64,000 nt of DNA. It comes from a phage. Both the position numbers and the translations under genes were made by a program. A model generated the notes under the pieces. That model was not told the origin of the DNA. It was given only the letters and a program-made list of their open reading frames with translations, and ran no database searches. Below are positions 3,619-62,233 of the stretch, piece by piece. Position 1 is the first letter of the stretch, and each line of letters opens with the position of its first letter. The stretch lies in the sequence record PZ452596.1, one strand, 5' to 3'.

Positions 3619-3851
3619 TTATTTTTCTCAACCAATGATTGAATATAATCATGCAGGTCTTTAGATGCTTTACCCCACTTATTTTGATATTCATTTTTGA
3701 GATTAGCACGTGATTGAGCTAATAAAACATCATTAGTTGGAGGTAAAGATTCTAATCGTTGAATCTGGCGACCATAAATCATTGCAGCCATCTCGGATTC
3801 ATAAATCAATTCTTTGAGATGTTCAAATTGATGCCATGAAATCATTTGCAT
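3615..3851 (-). CDS. hypothetical protein (pseT-alc cluster)
   Basis: 78-aa ORF. Confidence 0.5.
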
Positions 3852-4141
3852 TTATCCTCTTTTAGCTCTTGACGATAATAACATATCATAGTTTTCTGGT
3901 CATGTACATATCGTTTTACATCATTAAGCCAAATACGAAATTCCTGGGAATCTTCAAATGGCATACCGACCCAAGCTTTACCATCAATAACTTTAACTTG
4001 CCAAGATAGTTTAGCTTCGTCATATGACTTTATCTGTACAGGCCAATTAGGATGAACTGTTTCTTTCTTTACTTCTAGAGGCTTTGTCGAACAACCAACT
4101 AGAAGACCAATAGATAATATTACTGCTGATAGTTTAATCAT
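3842..4141 (-). CDS. predicted lipoprotein
   Basis: N-terminus MIKLSAVILSIGLLVGCS: signal peptide with lipobox L-V-G-C. Confidence 0.5.
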   Translation of the reverse strand: MIKLSAVILSIGLLVGCSTKPLEVKKETVHPNWPVQIKSYDEAKLSWQVKVIDGKAWVGMPFEDSQEFRIWLNDVKRYVHDQKTMICYYRQELKEDKCK

Positions 4142-4491
4142 TTAGAAAGGTCCTGGATGTCTTCTGCGAACTTGTTGAAGGAGTTGTTGATTTGTTTTTC
4201 AACCAATCCTGGCTTATGAGCCACCACATCCGCCTTCTTTGCGTCTTTGCGCAGTTTTTCATTTTCACGCTCAATAGCAGCAATTGCCTCACGATTTTTA
4301 TTATTCATCGCATCAATATAATTATACTGAATTCGCAAATTATTTAATGCTAAGGCGTTTTCATTGGCCGTTTTTGTAATTTCAGTAACTGATGTTTCTA
4401 ATCTTTCTACCTTATTTTTTAAAATAATAGATGTTCCGCCAAATGCTATTACAAGTAATAGCAATCCAGCTGTAAAATTACTTACATGCAT
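4138..4491 (-). CDS. hypothetical membrane-anchored protein
   Basis: 117 aa; N-terminal hydrophobic helix then charged, coiled-coil-like region. Confidence 0.5.
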   Translation of the reverse strand: MHVSNFTAGLLLLVIAFGGTSIILKNKVERLETSVTEITKTANENALALNNLRIQYNYIDAMNNKNREAIAAIERENEKLRKDAKKADVVAHKPGLVEKQINNSFNKFAEDIQDLSK

Positions 4492-4994: not shown

Positions 4995-5049
4995 CTCATG
5001 TTATGTCAGTAAGTCTACTATAACACAACACGAGGGACTTGTAAACAGC

Positions 5050-32788: not shown

Positions 32789-32929
32789 TTACCATACTAG
32801 TGAATGTAGTGCCATAATAACATCAGAAATGAAAAGCACGACTTGAATTAATCCGAACATTACTCCATAATATAGTGCTACTAATAAAGTAGCAAGGGCT
32901 AATGAATAGCCCAAGATTTTCTTAATCAT
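32789..32929 (-). CDS. small hydrophobic membrane protein (ac / 52.1-like position)
   Basis: 46-aa ORF MIKKILGYSLALATLLVALYYGV... found by hand. Confidence 0.35.
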   Translation of the reverse strand: MIKKILGYSLALATLLVALYYGVMFGLIQVVLFISDVIMALHSLVW

Positions 32930-33080
32930 TAGTAGATAACAACACAAATGTTAAATATGCACACATACCCTGAGCTAAAGCTTGCGAAAACACACTGCTG
33001 GCATCAATACAGATAGTTAAAACACATGCTACTATCCAACAAATAAATGAAATAACTCCTAATAATTTTGCAATATTCAT
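32922..33080 (-). CDS. small hydrophobic membrane protein (ac-like position)
   Basis: 52-aa ORF MNIAKLLGVISFICWIVACVLTIC... found by hand. Confidence 0.35.
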   Translation of the reverse strand: MNIAKLLGVISFICWIVACVLTICIDASSVFSQALAQGMCAYLTFVLLSTND

Positions 33081-36702: not shown

Positions 36703-36713
36703 AATTTTCCTTA

Positions 36714-39124: not shown

Positions 39125-39165
39125 CAATTAATTATACCACATCCTTGTGGTAAAGTAAACTACTG
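39125..39165 (-). promoter_or_regulatory. early promoter upstream of rIIA.1/rIIA
   Basis: minus strand GTTTAC -16- GGTATAAT. Confidence 0.5.
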
Positions 39166-40980
39166 GCTCATCCATTCTTTACGAAGGTCAGCATTATCTC
39201 CCATGAGCATTTCAAAAAGCTCTTTCCAGTTCTCAGGAAGTTTAACAACATCATATACTGGATTTTGAATCATCTCACGATATTCAGATTTTTCCAAAGA
39301 GCCAAGTCCCTTAATATAACGGATACTATGTTTAGGTAGAGCATCTTTAGCACTCTCATATTCAGCGACTGTATAAAACCATTCTTGTTTTTTACCGACC
39401 TGAGCGATGATTACAGGAGTTTTGACAAAGCGAATTCGTCCTTGCTCAAACAATTCTGGCCAATTACTAAAAAATCCGAGCAGAGAAGGATAAATGCTTC
39501 CTAAACCATCATGGTCAGCATCAGTCATAATAGCAATATTATGATAATTCAAGTTTTCAGCTTTTTCACCTAGAACTAAACCCGTGATTGCGCAAATATC
39601 AAACAGTTCTTTGTTTTTAAGCATATCAGCATATGACATACCCCAACTGTTGAGAACTTTACCACGCAATGGATAACCACCATGAAGTTCTTTATCACGA
39701 ACATCAATAAGATATCCGATAGCAGAATCACCCTCAGTCAAGAAAAGAGTAGTGTCAGCATCTTTACCACAAAGATTCGCTTTAATATGTTTATGAACCT
39801 TAGCTTTAGAAGCCTTTTTAGCTGCTTTAGTTTCTGCTGCTTTTTCTGCTGCCAATTTACGAGCTAATGCTGCTTCAATAATTGGCATCAAAATTGCTTC
39901 ATTATTTAGAATAGCGCGTGAAATCTTTTTAGCATCAAGTTGAATATGACTACGGATTTCACCAAATGGAGAAGTCAAACGCTCTTTAGTTTGAGAATCA
40001 AATCGCATGTTTTTCATATCACGAACAAACATAACGATAGTCAAACATTCTTTGACACGTGCTTTAGTTACATCAATTTTGAACTTACGTTTGATTTGTG
40101 GAATAAGGTCTTCACAAATATCATCCATAACACAGTCAATGTGATGGCCACCATTCTTAGTGTGAATGTTATTCACATAAGTTAATTGACGAAATCCATC
40201 CGGTGAACGACCAACCGCAATAGAACAATTTTCTTGTTCTTGAACAATAGCATGTTCATCATACTGTCGTGCATATTTCTTAAAATTGCCCTGAACCTTT
40301 TTACCATTAAAGGTAAATTGAATATCAGGATAAACAACAGCAAGTGTCTGGAGACGATCCAGTGTAATGTCAAGATAAACTTGGGACAGCTCATTAGTTT
40401 CAAATGACATAAAATCAGGAATGAAAGTAACACGAGTTCCTTTCCATTTTCCAGGAATATCTTCCCATGATTTATTTTCCATGCCATTTGAACAACGAAC
40501 TACAATATTATTTTGACCATCACCAGTTTCACCGACAAACATCACAGAAAAAATGTTTGTCAAACTAGAACCAACACCATTCATACCACCGGTGACGCGT
40601 TCTTTATCATCACCGAAGTTACCACCTGCTTTTGGAATAGTCCACGCAGCAACAGGACCAGGAATTTCTTCACCTGTAGGTGTTTTAACCATCGCCTGTG
40701 GAATACCGCGACCGTTATCTTCAACTGTTACCTGATTATTTTTAATAGTAACATTAATTTTATTTGCGAATTTAAACTTAGTACGAATACCTTCATCTAC
40801 TGAGTTATCAATAATTTCATCAATAAGCTTAACAAGACCAGGTACATACTGAACACTTTCCCATTTACCAAACAGAAAGCGCTCATGCATTTCATTAGCA
40901 GAAGAGCCAATATACATGCCGCTACGCTTTTTGATATGTTCAATATCGCTCAGAATTTTAATTTCATTCTTAATCATCAC
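39160..40980 (-). CDS. 39: DNA topoisomerase II large (ATPase) subunit, unsplit gene 39
   Basis: 606-aa GyrB-like ORF in one frame; in T4 this protein is split into genes 39 and 60. Confidence 0.9.
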   Translation of the reverse strand: MMIKNEIKILSDIEHIKKRSGMYIGSSANEMHERFLFGKWESVQYVPGLVKLIDEIIDNSVDEGIRTKFKFANKINVTIKNNQVTVEDNGRGIPQAMVKTPTGEEIPGPVAAWTIPKAGGNFGDDKERVTGGMNGVGSSLTNIFSVMFVGETGDGQNNIVVRCSNGMENKSWEDIPGKWKGTRVTFIPDFMSFETNELSQVYLDITLDRLQTLAVVYPDIQFTFNGKKVQGNFKKYARQYDEHAIVQEQENCSIAVGRSPDGFRQLTYVNNIHTKNGGHHIDCVMDDICEDLIPQIKRKFKIDVTKARVKECLTIVMFVRDMKNMRFDSQTKERLTSPFGEIRSHIQLDAKKISRAILNNEAILMPIIEAALARKLAAEKAAETKAAKKASKAKVHKHIKANLCGKDADTTLFLTEGDSAIGYLIDVRDKELHGGYPLRGKVLNSWGMSYADMLKNKELFDICAITGLVLGEKAENLNYHNIAIMTDADHDGLGSIYPSLLGFFSNWPELFEQGRIRFVKTPVIIAQVGKKQEWFYTVAEYESAKDALPKHSIRYIKGLGSLEKSEYREMIQNPVYDVVKLPENWKELFEMLMGDNADLRKEWMSQ

Positions 40981-41046
40981 TTATCCTCGTTTGGTTTCGG
41001 GAATATTATACTCCGGTAATCATAAAGCTAAAGGCCCGAAGGCCTT

Positions 41047-41307
41047 TTATTTAAAACGAATAGTTGAATCCTTAAAGAACAGCCCAGAACATACTGTTCC
41101 TTCTACTTTCTGCCCGGTAGGTCCAATAGCACGAAATCCAGTATGCTGGAAATCATTTTCAGAGCAACCGAACCAATTATATCCAGTGATTTCAATATTA
41201 GTAAAACCACTTGAAGACAAAACTTTGGTTGCATTATCAGCATCAGTACATCCTACTAAAGACACTACTAATACTAATGCTGCGATAGAACGATTAATAT
41301 ATTTCAT
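41047..41307 (-). CDS. predicted lipoprotein
   Basis: start at MKYINRSIAALVLVVSLVGCTD: signal peptide plus lipobox L-V-G-C; about 86 aa. Confidence 0.5.
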   Translation of the reverse strand: MKYINRSIAALVLVVSLVGCTDADNATKVLSSSGFTNIEITGYNWFGCSENDFQHTGFRAIGPTGQKVEGTVCSGLFFKDSTIRFK

Positions 41308-41311
41308 AATT

Positions 41312-41683
41312 TCACTTAAATTTAATGGCTTGAAGAAGACTAATAACTCCCAAGCGACTTCTTTCATCTTTAACTGTAAAAGAAAGAGGGTCACCAGACT
41401 TCATAGTAATAGTGCATTCAAAATCAAAACCTTCGGGAACTTCTTCGAATAGGTCAAATTCTTCATCATAAATTAGAACACTACTTTGCAGACTGTGAAG
41501 AGTTTTTCCAGCATTTCCAGATGCTGTACCAATCATTGTAACATTATGACCTTTCATATCTTCAACGATAAATTCACTAGTCAATATTACAGCATTAATA
41601 GAACTATTCCTATTACTAGCAGAAAGTAGAAATTTCTGTTCTTCACCTTCGCGAATACGATATTTCTTACCCATTTTAAACAT
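41312..41683 (-). CDS. hypothetical protein (gene 39 upstream cluster)
   Basis: 123-aa ORF. Confidence 0.5.
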   Translation of the reverse strand: MFKMGKKYRIREGEEQKFLLSASNRNSSINAVILTSEFIVEDMKGHNVTMIGTASGNAGKTLHSLQSSVLIYDEEFDLFEEVPEGFDFECTITMKSGDPLSFTVKDERSRLGVISLLQAIKFK

Positions 41684-54937: not shown

Positions 54938-55534
54938 AATATTTACTTTAGACTGTTTTTCAGATGGCAATTCATATCCACATATTACAATTTTATGATC
55001 AATATCAAAATACACAGAAGCAATATGATTAATGATATTTTCAGTGAAGTCTAAATCAACATCAATATCTTTTTGACCACAGCCCAAAGGATAAATAATG
55101 CGAGTAATTCGATTATCTTTAACAAATATTCCACCGACATACTCTGTACTGCGTTTAAAGTCTACACGCCGACGAAATGAAAAATATTCAGGCTCTCTAT
55201 GAGCTCGGCTCATAGGACACAACGAGTAACTAGAATAAGAGATGTCAAATCCTACACCTTCAATATGAGCCAACGTGTCATGATTAAACCAATTATAATC
55301 GTACGCCAAATCCATTATATTGTAATATGTGAAAGGCACCGGATTAACATCATGTGTTGTACCTTTAAAATCTGCCCAGGCAACGATTTCGTTATCTTTA
55401 ACAATTACAAAAATTGTGCCAATAAGATATCCACGGTTATTTTCATCAGGCGTTATATTATAACATTGTGCATCAGGAAATTTACCGTATTTAAACGGTG
55501 GATTTTTGTGCATATAATAAATCATATTATTCAC
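54893..55534 (-). CDS. 61.x-family paralog (long; 61.2 position)
   Basis: 213 aa; two copies of the G.I.V.KDN domain; same C-terminal 13 aa as the short paralog. Confidence 0.5.
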   Translation of the reverse strand: MNNMIYYMHKNPPFKYGKFPDAQCYNITPDENNRGYLIGTIFVIVKDNEIVAWADFKGTTHDVNPVPFTYYNIMDLAYDYNWFNHDTLAHIEGVGFDISYSSYSLCPMSRAHREPEYFSFRRRVDFKRSTEYVGGIFVKDNRITRIIYPLGCGQKDIDVDLDFTENIINHIASVYFDIDHKIVICGYELPSEKQSKVNISIDDQIFNAFMNRD

Positions 55535-55820
55535 CTGTGATTTCGGTTACGATATTTTTGTTATTAAAGTTTTTATCGCAATACAGAACATAATTATACT
55601 GCATTACACCACCAGACTTAAGCTGTTTTTGTACTTCAGCTTTCATTTCAGGACGATCACGCTCAACGATATTCATAATATCTGCTTCAATCTGAGTTTC
55701 AACCTCAGTCTGATCTGCAGTCATAGACCATTCGCACAAATCTTTATCATAACCCGCCATAGCAGGCTGAGCAGCACAAGAAGCCAAAGCAAAAATTGCA
55801 GCAAAAATAAATTTTTTCAT
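55527..55820 (-). CDS. sp: Spackle periplasmic protein (lysozyme inhibitor / superinfection exclusion)
   Basis: 97 aa, signal peptide MKKFIFAAIFALASCAAQPAMA; matches T4 Sp. Confidence 0.85.
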   Translation of the reverse strand: MKKFIFAAIFALASCAAQPAMAGYDKDLCEWSMTADQTEVETQIEADIMNIVERDRPEMKAEVQKQLKSGGVMQYNYVLYCDKNFNNKNIVTEITGE

Positions 55821-61009: not shown

Positions 61010-61159
61010 TCAATTGATACATTCATATTTAACTTGTAACAGTAATAAACCCCAACCTAAAATAATAGTCGGAATCATAAGAGGAACCGTTACACTATAG
61101 TATATACTTATTATAATCATCAAGATTAAAAGCAACACTGCTATAATTTTGCTTTTCAT
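61010..61159 (-). CDS. small hydrophobic membrane protein (imm.1 position)
   Basis: 49 aa MKSKIIAVLLLILMIIISIYYSV... found by hand; ATGA overlap with imm. Confidence 0.35.
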   Translation of the reverse strand: MKSKIIAVLLLILMIIISIYYSVTVPLMIPTIILGWGLLLLQVKYECIN

Positions 61160-61407
61160 TCCTTCTCTCTGATGATAATTACTTGATTTGGCTGTGCAGA
61201 CTTTTTGGTTTCACCCGCAATTGACCAAATAAATGTAATAAACCAACCAATAATTGACCAGTTAAACAGCAAAGACGTGAAAAAGATTCCTACTGTCGAT
61301 TTTGACCCACGCATCAAGGCGATAAACCATGGAAGCATGTATATAATAATAGCCAACACACCTGAAACTAAAACCATAAAAATTGAACCTGCTACTAAAG
61401 TTTCCAT
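61156..61407 (-). CDS. imm: Imm, immunity to superinfection membrane protein
   Basis: 83 aa, two TM helices; matches T4 Imm. Confidence 0.9.
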   Translation of the reverse strand: METLVAGSIFMVLVSGVLAIIIYMLPWFIALMRGSKSTVGIFFTSLLFNWSIIGWFITFIWSIAGETKKSAQPNQVIIIREKE

Positions 61408-61414
61408 GTTTTCC

Positions 61415-61795
61415 TCACTTAGTCAAATTTTTTACACATGAATTATAAGAATTCACTACATACTCCATCGGAGCATTTTTACCAGTACGCCATTGGTAAT
61501 TATTAGCCCAATTAGCCCAAAGCTCGGCGCAGTAGTTTTCAATTTTTTCTTCGCGTGTAATTACATCCGAATTACGATATGCTTGAGCAGATTCATCTGG
61601 ACGAATAGCTTCGTCAAAATTCGCCTGCATTTGTTCTACTGTTTGCTTTGGAGCTTCTTTATAACACTTGACATTAGGATTATAAAATTTGCTTGAACAG
61701 TTTACAATTTTTCCTACATCAGACTGATTTACTACCGGTCCTTGAGCTACACAACCAGTAAGACCTAATGCAATAACCAAAATAGCGATTTTCAT
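61415..61795 (-). CDS. predicted lipoprotein
   Basis: 126 aa; MKIAILVIALGLTGCVAQG: signal peptide plus lipobox L-T-G-C. Confidence 0.5.
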   Translation of the reverse strand: MKIAILVIALGLTGCVAQGPVVNQSDVGKIVNCSSKFYNPNVKCYKEAPKQTVEQMQANFDEAIRPDESAQAYRNSDVITREEKIENYCAELWANWANNYQWRTGKNAPMEYVVNSYNSCVKNLTK

Positions 61796-61807: not shown

Positions 61808-62059
61808 TTAAAACTTAACAAATAACTTTAAAGCATCTTCAGTTTTAATTCCTTTTCTTACACCCATAACAGAAATTGGCTGTGACTGAAATTTTCCTTT
61901 ACCATTATAAATTTCTAATCCAGTAACCATTCCATTTTGTTCTATAATACCGTAAGTGTTACCTTCATTTTCAAATTCTTTAACTTTAAAGAGTTTATTA
62001 GCTTTTTCTGCGTTAACAACTTTTAAATTTTGAATAAAATTAGTTTGAATATTTTTCAT
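61808..62059 (-). CDS. hypothetical protein
   Basis: 83-aa ORF directly downstream of an early promoter repeat. Confidence 0.45.
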   Translation of the reverse strand: MKNIQTNFIQNLKVVNAEKANKLFKVKEFENEGNTYGIIEQNGMVTGLEIYNGKGKFQSQPISVMGVRKGIKTEDALKLFVKF

Positions 62060-62067
62060 TTTGTGTT

Positions 62068-62128
62068 CCTCCGTAGTTGATAGTTGTATAGTACCATGGA
62101 AGAACAGTCTTGTAAACAGTTTTGTGAA
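62068..62128 (-). promoter_or_regulatory. T4-type early promoter downstream of gene 43 terminator (repeat family copy)
   Basis: near-identical to copies at 14535 and 31210. Confidence 0.5.
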
Positions 62129-62204
62129 AATTTTTTAGGGAATTCTAAAGGTCCAGAATCATCTGTTTTTCATAAGTATAGATTTATATTACTTGTATGA
62201 AAAA

Positions 62205-62220
62205 GGGACCCGGAGGTCCC
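62205..62220 (-). terminator. rho-independent terminator after gene 43
   Basis: GGGACC-CGGA-GGTCCC hairpin followed on minus strand by TTTTTCAT. Confidence 0.75.
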
Positions 62221-62233
62221 TAGATTTATTCTA

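Follow-up and report, generated by a model that had tools for sequence, protein, structure and literature searches.

Three predicted lipoprotein genes of phage RB27: orthologues of T4 pseT.2, 39.1 and imm.1 with apparently different roles

Overview

The 64,000 nucleotides of phage DNA in sequence record PZ452596.1 (the window, meaning this whole stretch) contain three short open reading frames (ORFs), all on the minus strand, that had been predicted to encode lipoproteins with a role in superinfection exclusion or receptor masking. The explanation that accounts best for the findings as a whole, and that is considered likely, is that the three ORFs are genuine, mutually unrelated lipoprotein genes and are the orthologues of T4 pseT.2, 39.1 and imm.1. 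The proposed exclusion or masking role holds for at most one of them. It fails for pseT.2, which encodes an o-spanin, it is unlikely for 39.1, and imm.1 is the only one of the three that gains support for a superinfection-related role, by its association with imm. All three genes had already been annotated, pseT.2 with an established lysis function.

Three segments of the window are 100% identical to Enterobacteria phage RB27 (NC_025448.1 / KM607000.1; Tequatrovirus), and hundreds of T4-like phages are 90-99% identical to the same segments. The window is circularly permuted with respect to the RB27 record, which starts at window position 36713. The ORFs at 3842-4141, 41047-41307 and 61415-61795 are present as annotated RB27 coding sequences.

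Lipoprotein signals

The predicted N-termini are MIKLSAVILSIGLLVG-C17-ST in PseT.2, MKYINRSIAALVLVVSLVG-C20-TD in gp39.1 and MKIAILVIALGLTG-C15-VA in Imm.1, and all three have a Lys or Arg near the N-terminus. The lipoboxes LVGC, LVGC and LTGC named in the original prediction thus agree with the sequences, and the prediction of a signal peptide with a lipobox in each protein has held up as well. A strict lipobox rule was applied that demands an n-region with Lys or Arg, an uncharged hydrophobic core and the motif [LVIMFTA][ASTVIGLMC][GAS]C with the Cys at position 13-32. The window gives five hits (pseT.2, 39.1, imm.1, sp and ac), while 100 codon-block shuffles give a mean of 0.39 hits with a standard deviation of 0.66 and a maximum of 3. 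The conservation of the Cys among homologues is a stronger argument for the predicted lipoprotein status than this shuffle control. In an alignment of 46 homologues of gp39.1 the Cys20 column is at least 90% conserved, and 10 of these 46 family members match the Pfam lipid-attachment-site model LPAM_1. The lipobox Cys is found in five of seven sequences of DUF5481, the Pfam family of Imm.1, and in every sampled imm-linked homologue from other genera. For PseT.2, the lipoprotein signal of the T4 family has been described (PMC6139136).

Two other proteins satisfy the rule. The gene sp (61.3; window 55527-55820, minus strand) encodes the Spackle precursor MKKFIFAAIFALASC-AAQPAMA-G, in which a lipobox-like ALASC lies within the signal peptide. 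Sp is a soluble periplasmic protein of 75 amino acids in its mature form and an inhibitor of the gp5 lysozyme (PMC7677548), and the mature length places the cleavage after residue 22. The gene ac (window 32922-33080, minus strand) encodes an acridine-resistance membrane protein of 52 amino acids (MNIAKLLGVISFICWIVAC...) that has several Cys residues and resembles a simple transmembrane segment, and its match to the rule is probably a false positive.

Could the lipoboxes of 39.1 and imm.1 be fortuitous as well, the proteins being ordinary secreted products of signal peptidase I or membrane-anchored proteins? Sp, which is cleaved elsewhere in spite of its ALASC, offers a precedent, and two members of DUF5481 have no Cys at this position. 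The Cys of the 39.1 family is, however, at least 90% conserved at the canonical distance from a short hydrophobic core, the Cys of Imm.1 is kept through highly diverged members of its PHROG family phrog_1754, and neither the 0.39 hits per window expected from shuffles nor the LPAM_1 matches in the 39.1 family fit with chance. A fortuitous origin is considered very improbable.

None of the three proteins has an Asp at position +2 after the lipid-modified Cys. In E. coli, lipoproteins without Asp at +2 do not avoid the Lol sorting machinery and are sent to the outer membrane. By this rule PseT.2, gp39.1 and Imm.1 would be expected in the inner leaflet of the outer membrane.

PseT.2 and lysis

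PseT.2 is almost certainly an o-spanin, which is to say a lysis protein and not an exclusion protein; the role in lysis is experimental in T4 and follows by homology in RB27. The protein matches phrog_812, 'Rz-like spanin', over residues 1-99 (E 3.5e-43). Its signal peptide comprises residues 1-16 and acylation is predicted at Cys17 (codon 4093-4091), which leaves a mature length of 83 residues. There are exactly three Cys residues, at positions 17, 87 and 98, the last two of which are periplasmic as in T4 PseT.2. A peptide used as an antibody epitope in T4 PseT.2, WLNDVKRYVHDQKT, is identical at RB27 residues 71-84. The neighbouring gene pseT.3 encodes the i-spanin partner. PseT.3 has a hydrophobic N-terminal transmembrane segment and a helical periplasmic domain, has no Cys, gives weak Pfam matches of the coiled-coil type and carries at residues 74-87 an epitope identical to that of T4. 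The stop codon of pseT.3 and the start codon of pseT.2 overlap by four nucleotides (ATGA). Judged by its sequence, the protein possesses every testable defining feature of the T4 o-spanin family.

The T4 proteins have been studied directly. Kongari et al. named T4 PseT.3/PseT.2 the paradigm of a separated two-component spanin (2018, PMC6139136). In the same study T4 pseT.3/pseT.2 complemented the lysis defect of lambda Rz/Rz1 amber mutants, and both Cys87 and Cys98 of PseT.2 were essential, as C87S and C98S abolished lysis (PMC6139136). Transposon data from HIDEN-SEQ on T4 show insertions at 6 of 30 sites in pseT.2, classed as a 'strong fitness defect', and at 5 of 28 sites in pseT.3, classed as 'essential' (bioRxiv 10.1101/2025.11.20.689424, supplementary file 7). 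One result speaks against a role in lysis: knock-down of T4 pseT.2 and pseT.3 by CRISPRi-ART was scored 'Not Fit', which stands for no fitness effect. The transposon data disagree with this score, for which an incomplete knock-down may be the reason. Spanin homology, complementation in T4 and the transposon defect together argue that pseT.2 acts in lysis and that the exclusion reading is wrong for this gene. As experiments on T4 have shown, and as homology leads one to expect in RB27, PseT.2 and the inner-membrane PseT.3 together span the periplasm, and their complex disrupts the outer membrane once holin and endolysin have done their part.

gp39.1 and its gene model

The mature gp39.1 is predicted to have 67 residues that begin with Cys20 (codon 41250-41248). 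The longest ORF at this position starts with a GTG at 41394; both the annotation and the alignment of homologues favour the ATG at 41307, which is also the start in the original prediction. The gene model of T4 needs comment. In the classical T4 reference, AF158101.6, gp39.1 is annotated with 65 amino acids and without a signal peptide. Compared with RB27 and with the resequenced T4 genome MT984581.1, this record has clustered substitutions and a one-nucleotide insertion exactly at the lipobox region (window 41248-41307, aligned with 2552-2680 of the AF158101.6 segment L016 and 341-470 of the MT984581.1 segment L017). RB27 and MT984581.1 encode an intact prolipoprotein of 86 amino acids, MKYINRSIAALVLAVSLIGC-TDADN, and the T4 record OZ209023.1 and the HIDEN-SEQ annotation of T4 (261 nucleotides) agree with the intact gene. 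The idea that 39.1 is inactivated in T4, which the 65-residue annotation would invite, was rejected since independent T4 records carry the intact 86-residue gene. The differences in AF158101.6 probably go back to an early sequencing error or to variation between strains. As a consequence, the time-resolved omics study (PMC9697503) and the CRISPRi studies, which used the old coordinates, relied on a truncated gene model for 39.1. The envelope location of gp39.1 has probably been overlooked because the classical reference shows 65 residues and no signal peptide, although 39.1 is among the most widely distributed of the small lipoproteins of T4-like phages.

The family is found in 1068 phage records, including two jumbo phages, and the hosts include Escherichia, Klebsiella, Enterobacter, Citrobacter, Serratia, Cronobacter, Salmonella, Yersinia and Stenotrophomonas. 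In the protein collection searched there are 53 homologue clusters, all of 56-100 amino acids, and the mature domain is about 50-98% identical among homologues. Distant members occur in other settings, beside genes for RNA ligase or close to the int/xis genes of a temperate element, and no conserved partner gene was seen. No Pfam domain was found in 39.1 itself; over the 46 family members only the lipid-attachment-site model recurs. The family's PHROG entry, phrog_902, carries no functional annotation, and neither do DUF5481 and phrog_1754. Cys48 and Cys73 are at least 90% conserved in the 46 homologues and may well form a disulfide. The predicted structure has a mean predicted local distance difference test (pLDDT) score of 75.8 and shows one helix on a four-stranded antiparallel sheet, a predicted fold that is cystatin/PepSY-like. 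A fold search of BFVD returned only uncharacterised phage lipoproteins, and a literature search on 'gp39.1' found no functional study. In T4, 39.1 is non-essential by HIDEN-SEQ with insertions at 25 of 26 sites (bioRxiv 10.1101/2025.11.20.689424), and CRISPRi-ART, with the old truncated gene model, scored it 'Not Fit'.

The original prediction can be made specific by assuming that all three proteins act like Llp of T5 and Cor of T1 and phi80, which bind an outer-membrane receptor from the periplasm and block adsorption. There are points of resemblance, as all three are small, early-expressed, predicted outer-membrane lipoproteins, imm.1 adjoins imm, and Llp itself is a small outer-membrane lipoprotein that faces the periplasm and contains an intramolecular disulfide (PMC9586334). 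However, PseT.2 is an o-spanin, searches of all three proteins in Pfam and PHROGs found no Cor or Llp family, and PADLOC gave no relevant hit. The llp gene adjoins a receptor-binding gene (PMC9586334), which is true of none of the three genes; their neighbours are pseT.3 and pseT.1 (pseT.2), gene 39 and RB27_005 (39.1), and imm and RB27_048 (imm.1). No similarity of 39.1 to Llp or Cor was detectable in the libraries searched, and when profiles of the 39.1 and Imm.1 families were searched against all PDB sequences, nothing relevant came up at E <= 10, although it was not confirmed that the PDB copy used contains 8A60, the FhuA-Llp structure whose deposition is cited in the Llp paper (PMC9586334). 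Finally, 39.1 is common to phages of Escherichia, Klebsiella, Enterobacter, Serratia, Stenotrophomonas and Pseudomonas, for which one common receptor is unlikely. That all three proteins mask receptors in this manner is hardly credible.

What might gp39.1 do instead? Phages for which one common receptor is unlikely have kept its mature domain, and receptor masking of the Llp/Cor type is therefore unlikely for it. A tentative suggestion, offered with more doubt than confidence, is that gp39.1 binds or inhibits a conserved component of the host envelope and not a specific phage receptor. It has also been considered that gp39.1 may inhibit a periplasmic hydrolase, a protease or muramidase, and so protect the infected envelope or block the enzyme of a competitor. 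This proposal is drawn from the cystatin/PepSY-like predicted fold and is considered improbable.

Imm.1 and the imm gene cluster

Imm.1 is best described as a lipoprotein component of the imm gene cluster. Its Cys15 (codon 61753-61751) would be the first of 112 residues in the predicted mature protein. The match to Pfam DUF5481 (PF17578) covers model positions 1-103 of 103 with E 5.4e-72 and 239.2 bits (gathering threshold 27), and the match to phrog_1754 has E 5e-44. The family is narrow, with six representatives at 50% identity among 1.84 billion proteins and eight clusters at 90%. DUF5481, as sampled in this analysis, has only Tequatrovirus- and Mosigvirus-type sequences, while phrog_1754 adds homologues from Klebsiella, Salmonella and Dhakavirus phages. 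By tblastn, imm.1 is found in 657 phage records, 502 of them at 95% identity or more and 155 below 60%; a sample of these records taken one by one suggests that the former are Tequatrovirus-type and the latter Mosigvirus-type. T4 imm.1 is 99% identical to that of RB27. In the seven DUF5481 sequences Cys89 and Cys120 are invariant, and Cys33 and Cys44 are either both present or both absent, a paired pattern that suggests disulfide partners in a periplasmic protein. The AlphaFold model has a pLDDT of 66 and is confident only at residues 81-125, a C-terminal helical hairpin that holds C89 and C120. A literature search on 'imm.1' and 'DUF5481' found no functional study and no exclusion phenotype.

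The case for a role in immunity begins with the neighbourhood of the gene. As the original prediction stated, the gene at 61415-61795 adjoins imm, which encodes the superinfection-immunity inner-membrane protein and starts seven nucleotides downstream on the same strand. Each DUF5481 lineage retrieved has a PF14373 Imm gene immediately downstream of the DUF5481 gene and in the same orientation. The Mosigvirus pair is found not between genes 43 and 42 but in the order dmd-imm.1-imm-sp-61.2, and in a metagenomic contig (L012) the upstream neighbour of imm.1 is a different one, a Frd3-like gene. Imm homologues occur in 1002 phage records, and the two identity bands, 502 records at 90% or more and 156 at 60-80%, mirror the tblastn counts for imm.1 (502 and 155). 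Between Tequatrovirus and Mosigvirus, Imm.1 is about 34% identical and Imm about 65%.

Outside these genera the linkage takes other forms. A lipobox protein of 147-163 amino acids is encoded directly upstream of imm in Klebsiella phage Mexia and in Salmonella phage STP4-a, and in the Dhakavirus JS98 a lipobox protein follows imm and a small ORF like 42.1. In the genera of Mexia, STP4-a and JS98, imm.1 was not found by tblastn. A direct comparison by hhalign of the DUF5481 alignment with the imm-linked lipoproteins of other genera aligns only the N-terminal 27-30 residues, which comprise the signal peptide and the mature N-terminal motif QG-VV-x-AS-EVGK-R. Along their whole length, however, the lipobox proteins of Mexia, STP4-a, JS98 and a further T4-like locus, L048, match phrog_1754 (E 1.7e-15 to 9e-52), and these matches settle the homology of the imm-linked lipoproteins across the arrangements. 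The groups upstream and downstream of imm are likewise homologous over 139 columns, their full length (hhalign probability 98.2%, E 6e-14).

Eighty viral-contig loci with Imm homologues were surveyed. Contig size and gene context placed 26 of them with the T4-like phages, and in all 26 a phrog_1754-type lipoprotein lies in the imm cluster within two genes of imm. In 17 of these it is directly upstream of imm, and in nine it comes after imm and a 42.1-like ORF. Among the 54 other Imm loci an adjacent lipobox ORF is present in two (L066, 2042-2440, and L092, 2799-3224).

That the linkage is kept over three arrangements, despite the divergence of Imm.1 to about 34%, supports a functional module with imm. 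In T4 both genes are non-essential by HIDEN-SEQ, with insertions at 31 of 31 sites in imm.1 and 20 of 20 in imm (bioRxiv 10.1101/2025.11.20.689424), and this dispensability fits a role in competition between phages. On this ground Imm.1 may contribute to superinfection immunity, a proposal that is reasonable although somewhat short of probable.

Several findings weigh against this proposal or against the lipoprotein nature of Imm.1. The DUF5481 members P0057 and P0061 lack the lipobox Cys and have a signal of the Ala-X-Ala type, like that of signal peptidase I, and a lipid anchor is therefore dispensable for the family. A Foldseek comparison of the low-confidence Imm.1 model with the PDB gave nothing below E = 1 and thus no informative fold match. 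Outside the T4-like phages 52 of the 54 Imm homologues have no adjacent lipoprotein. In work of 1989, Lu and Henning reportedly found that plasmid-borne imm alone excludes T4; if so, Imm.1 is not strictly required. The linkage among related phages may also be partly inherited synteny, as there are only about three independent arrangements.

Taken further, this last point becomes a rival explanation, in which the adjacency is inherited without any shared function and Imm.1 belongs to an unrelated periplasmic process such as the remodelling of the envelope, protection against a periplasmic factor of the host or the control of lysis timing. It would agree with the Imm homologues of most phages that are not T4-like, which work without a neighbouring lipoprotein, with the much faster divergence of Imm.1 than of Imm (about 34% against 65% identity) and with the dispensability of imm.1 in T4. 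Simple synteny is harder to reconcile with a linkage that survives the translocation of the pair in Mosigvirus, the inversion of gene order in Dhakavirus-like phages and a different upstream neighbour in contig L012, and with a lipoprotein no more than two genes from imm in all 26 T4-like loci. Inherited synteny without shared function is considered possible, if rather doubtful.

If Imm.1 does contribute to immunity, it would be an accessory envelope component, a lipoprotein that faces the periplasm. Together with Imm it may stop the tail tube or DNA conduit of another T-even phage on its way in; alternatively, it may stabilise or position Imm. A broader and more speculative view, which is rather unlikely as it stands, is that T4-type immunity is a trans-envelope module in which a fast-evolving outer-membrane Imm.1 and the inner-membrane Imm, possibly with 42.1, intercept the tail tube or DNA conduit of the second phage in the periplasm. 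Were this true, the divergence of Imm.1 between genera would be the mark of an arms race with incoming tail-tip proteins. The product of 42.1 is a hydrophobic protein, and its ORF overlaps the stop codon of imm. ORFs of this kind (consensus ...PMIPTLILGW...ECFN) also lie beside imm in Dhakavirus-like loci and in contig L012, and 42.1 is a possible third component of the imm cluster. The T4 reference, with a gap of 153 nucleotides between imm and 42, has no annotation for it.

The linkage of imm.1 and imm, with its strict conservation, points to a concrete and dispensable candidate partner for Imm, which is a modest but testable lead.

Transcription and neighbouring genes

The original prediction placed the three genes among early genes, and this agrees with T4, in which early RNA is reported for all three (PMC9697503). 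According to the supplementary tables of that study, imm.1 and pseT.2 have early RNA and early protein, pseT.3 has early RNA and middle protein, and 39.1 has early RNA and late protein. The promoters and other features are collected in Table 1. The sigma-70-like promoter upstream of alc probably drives a unit alc-pseT.3-pseT.2-pseT.1-...-pseT. A late-promoter motif, TATAAATA, was not found on the minus strand near pseT.2, 39.1 or imm.1, and late-promoter control of pseT.2 was rejected on this ground.

The statement that the gene at 61415-61795 lies directly downstream of an early promoter holds in part. An early-type promoter is present, downstream of the hairpin that follows gene 43, but it is RB27_048 that comes directly behind it, and imm.1 is the second gene of the unit. 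RB27_048, the first gene behind this promoter in the imm.1-imm unit of RB27, has no counterpart in the T4 annotation.

The stop codon of 39.1 is directly followed by a GC-rich hairpin. 3' of it (hairpin and following sequence 41005-41046, minus strand) come TAGCTTTA (41030-41023), 12 nucleotides and then TATAAT (41010-41005), and the stretch is identical in T4. By the known T4 consensus, this arrangement resembles a MotA-box middle promoter for gene 39, and the hairpin would be a terminator; the scan tool did not flag this arrangement. With a terminator and a middle promoter behind it, 39.1 would be the last gene of the upstream unit.

Two neighbours of 39.1 differ from those in T4. The large subunit of topoisomerase II is encoded in RB27 by a single ORF of about 605 amino acids (gene 39, window 39160-40980, minus strand), and its T4 counterpart is split into gene 39 (516 amino acids) and gene 60 with a mobA remnant between them. 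Between 39.1 and 39.2 RB27 has an ORF of 123 amino acids, RB27_005 (window 41312-41683, minus strand), which T4 lacks at the corresponding place. A match to phrog_622 was found for it, and a weak one to the goF family phrog_13003 (E 4e-8) that involves its N-terminal 85 residues. Because of this weak match and the presence of goF two genes upstream, RB27_005 may be a partial duplication.

Table 1. Positions in the window of the three lipoprotein genes and of features near them
Feature	Position	Strand	Description and basis
pseT.2 (RB27_218; product 'Rz-like spanin')	3842..4141	-	probable o-spanin prolipoprotein, 99 amino acids; ORF and annotation
pseT.3 (RB27_219)	4138..4491	-	i-spanin partner; phrog_739 'Rz-like spanin', E 9.7e-38
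Promoter upstream of alc	5017..5045	-	sigma-70/T4-early-like, TTTACA-17-TATAGT, TG-extended; consensus match only
Hairpin directly after 39.1 stop codon	41031..41046	-	GC-rich, AAGGCC-TTCG-GGCCTT; read from sequence
39.1 (RB27_004; annotated hypothetical)	41047..41307	-	predicted prolipoprotein, 86 amino acids; phrog_902
42.1 (RB27_045)	61010..61159	-	hydrophobic ORF, 49 amino acids, overlapping imm stop codon; phrog_3610
imm	61156..61407	-	superinfection-immunity inner-membrane protein; Pfam Imm_superinfect, E 7.7e-16; annotation
imm.1 (RB27_047; annotated hypothetical)	61415..61795	-	predicted prolipoprotein, 126 amino acids; DUF5481, phrog_1754
RB27_048	61808..62059	-	ORF of 83 amino acids between gene 43 and imm.1; phrog_18567; annotation
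Promoter ahead of RB27_048	62088..62116	-	early-type, (G)TTTACA-17-TACTAT, TG extension; consensus match only
Hairpin downstream of gene 43	62204..62221	-	intrinsic-terminator-like

Comparison with known systems

PseT.2 and PseT.3 of RB27 correspond to T4 PseT.3/PseT.2, the functional analogue of lambda Rz/Rz1. They share the PHROGs, the lengths (99 and 117 amino acids), the lipobox, Cys87 and Cys98, the separated genes and the overlap of four nucleotides, and nothing substantive differs in RB27. Lambda Rz1 differs in its arrangement, as pseT.2 is not embedded in the gene of its partner; it belongs to an early transcription unit and is a long way from the genes for holin and endolysin.

Like Llp of T5 and Cor of T1 and phi80, gp39.1 and Imm.1 are small, phage-encoded, predicted periplasm-facing outer-membrane lipoproteins, have conserved Cys pairs outside the lipobox and are early and dispensable. 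They differ in that no similarity of sequence or fold to Llp or Cor was detected for either protein and in that neither gene lies beside a receptor-binding gene. In addition, 39.1 is conserved across phages of many host genera, and Imm.1 is linked to an inner-membrane protein that blocks DNA entry and not to a receptor.

The closest parallel for Imm.1 is the exclusion system of T4 itself, which consists of Imm and Sp. Imm.1 and Sp differ in that Imm.1 is predicted to be lipid-anchored and is unrelated to Sp in sequence. Nevertheless, Imm.1 is predicted to be periplasmic and helical like mature Sp, and its Cys pairs suggest disulfides. The gene imm.1 is co-oriented with imm and close upstream of it, imm.1, imm and sp are contiguous in Mosigvirus, and all three are early and non-essential.

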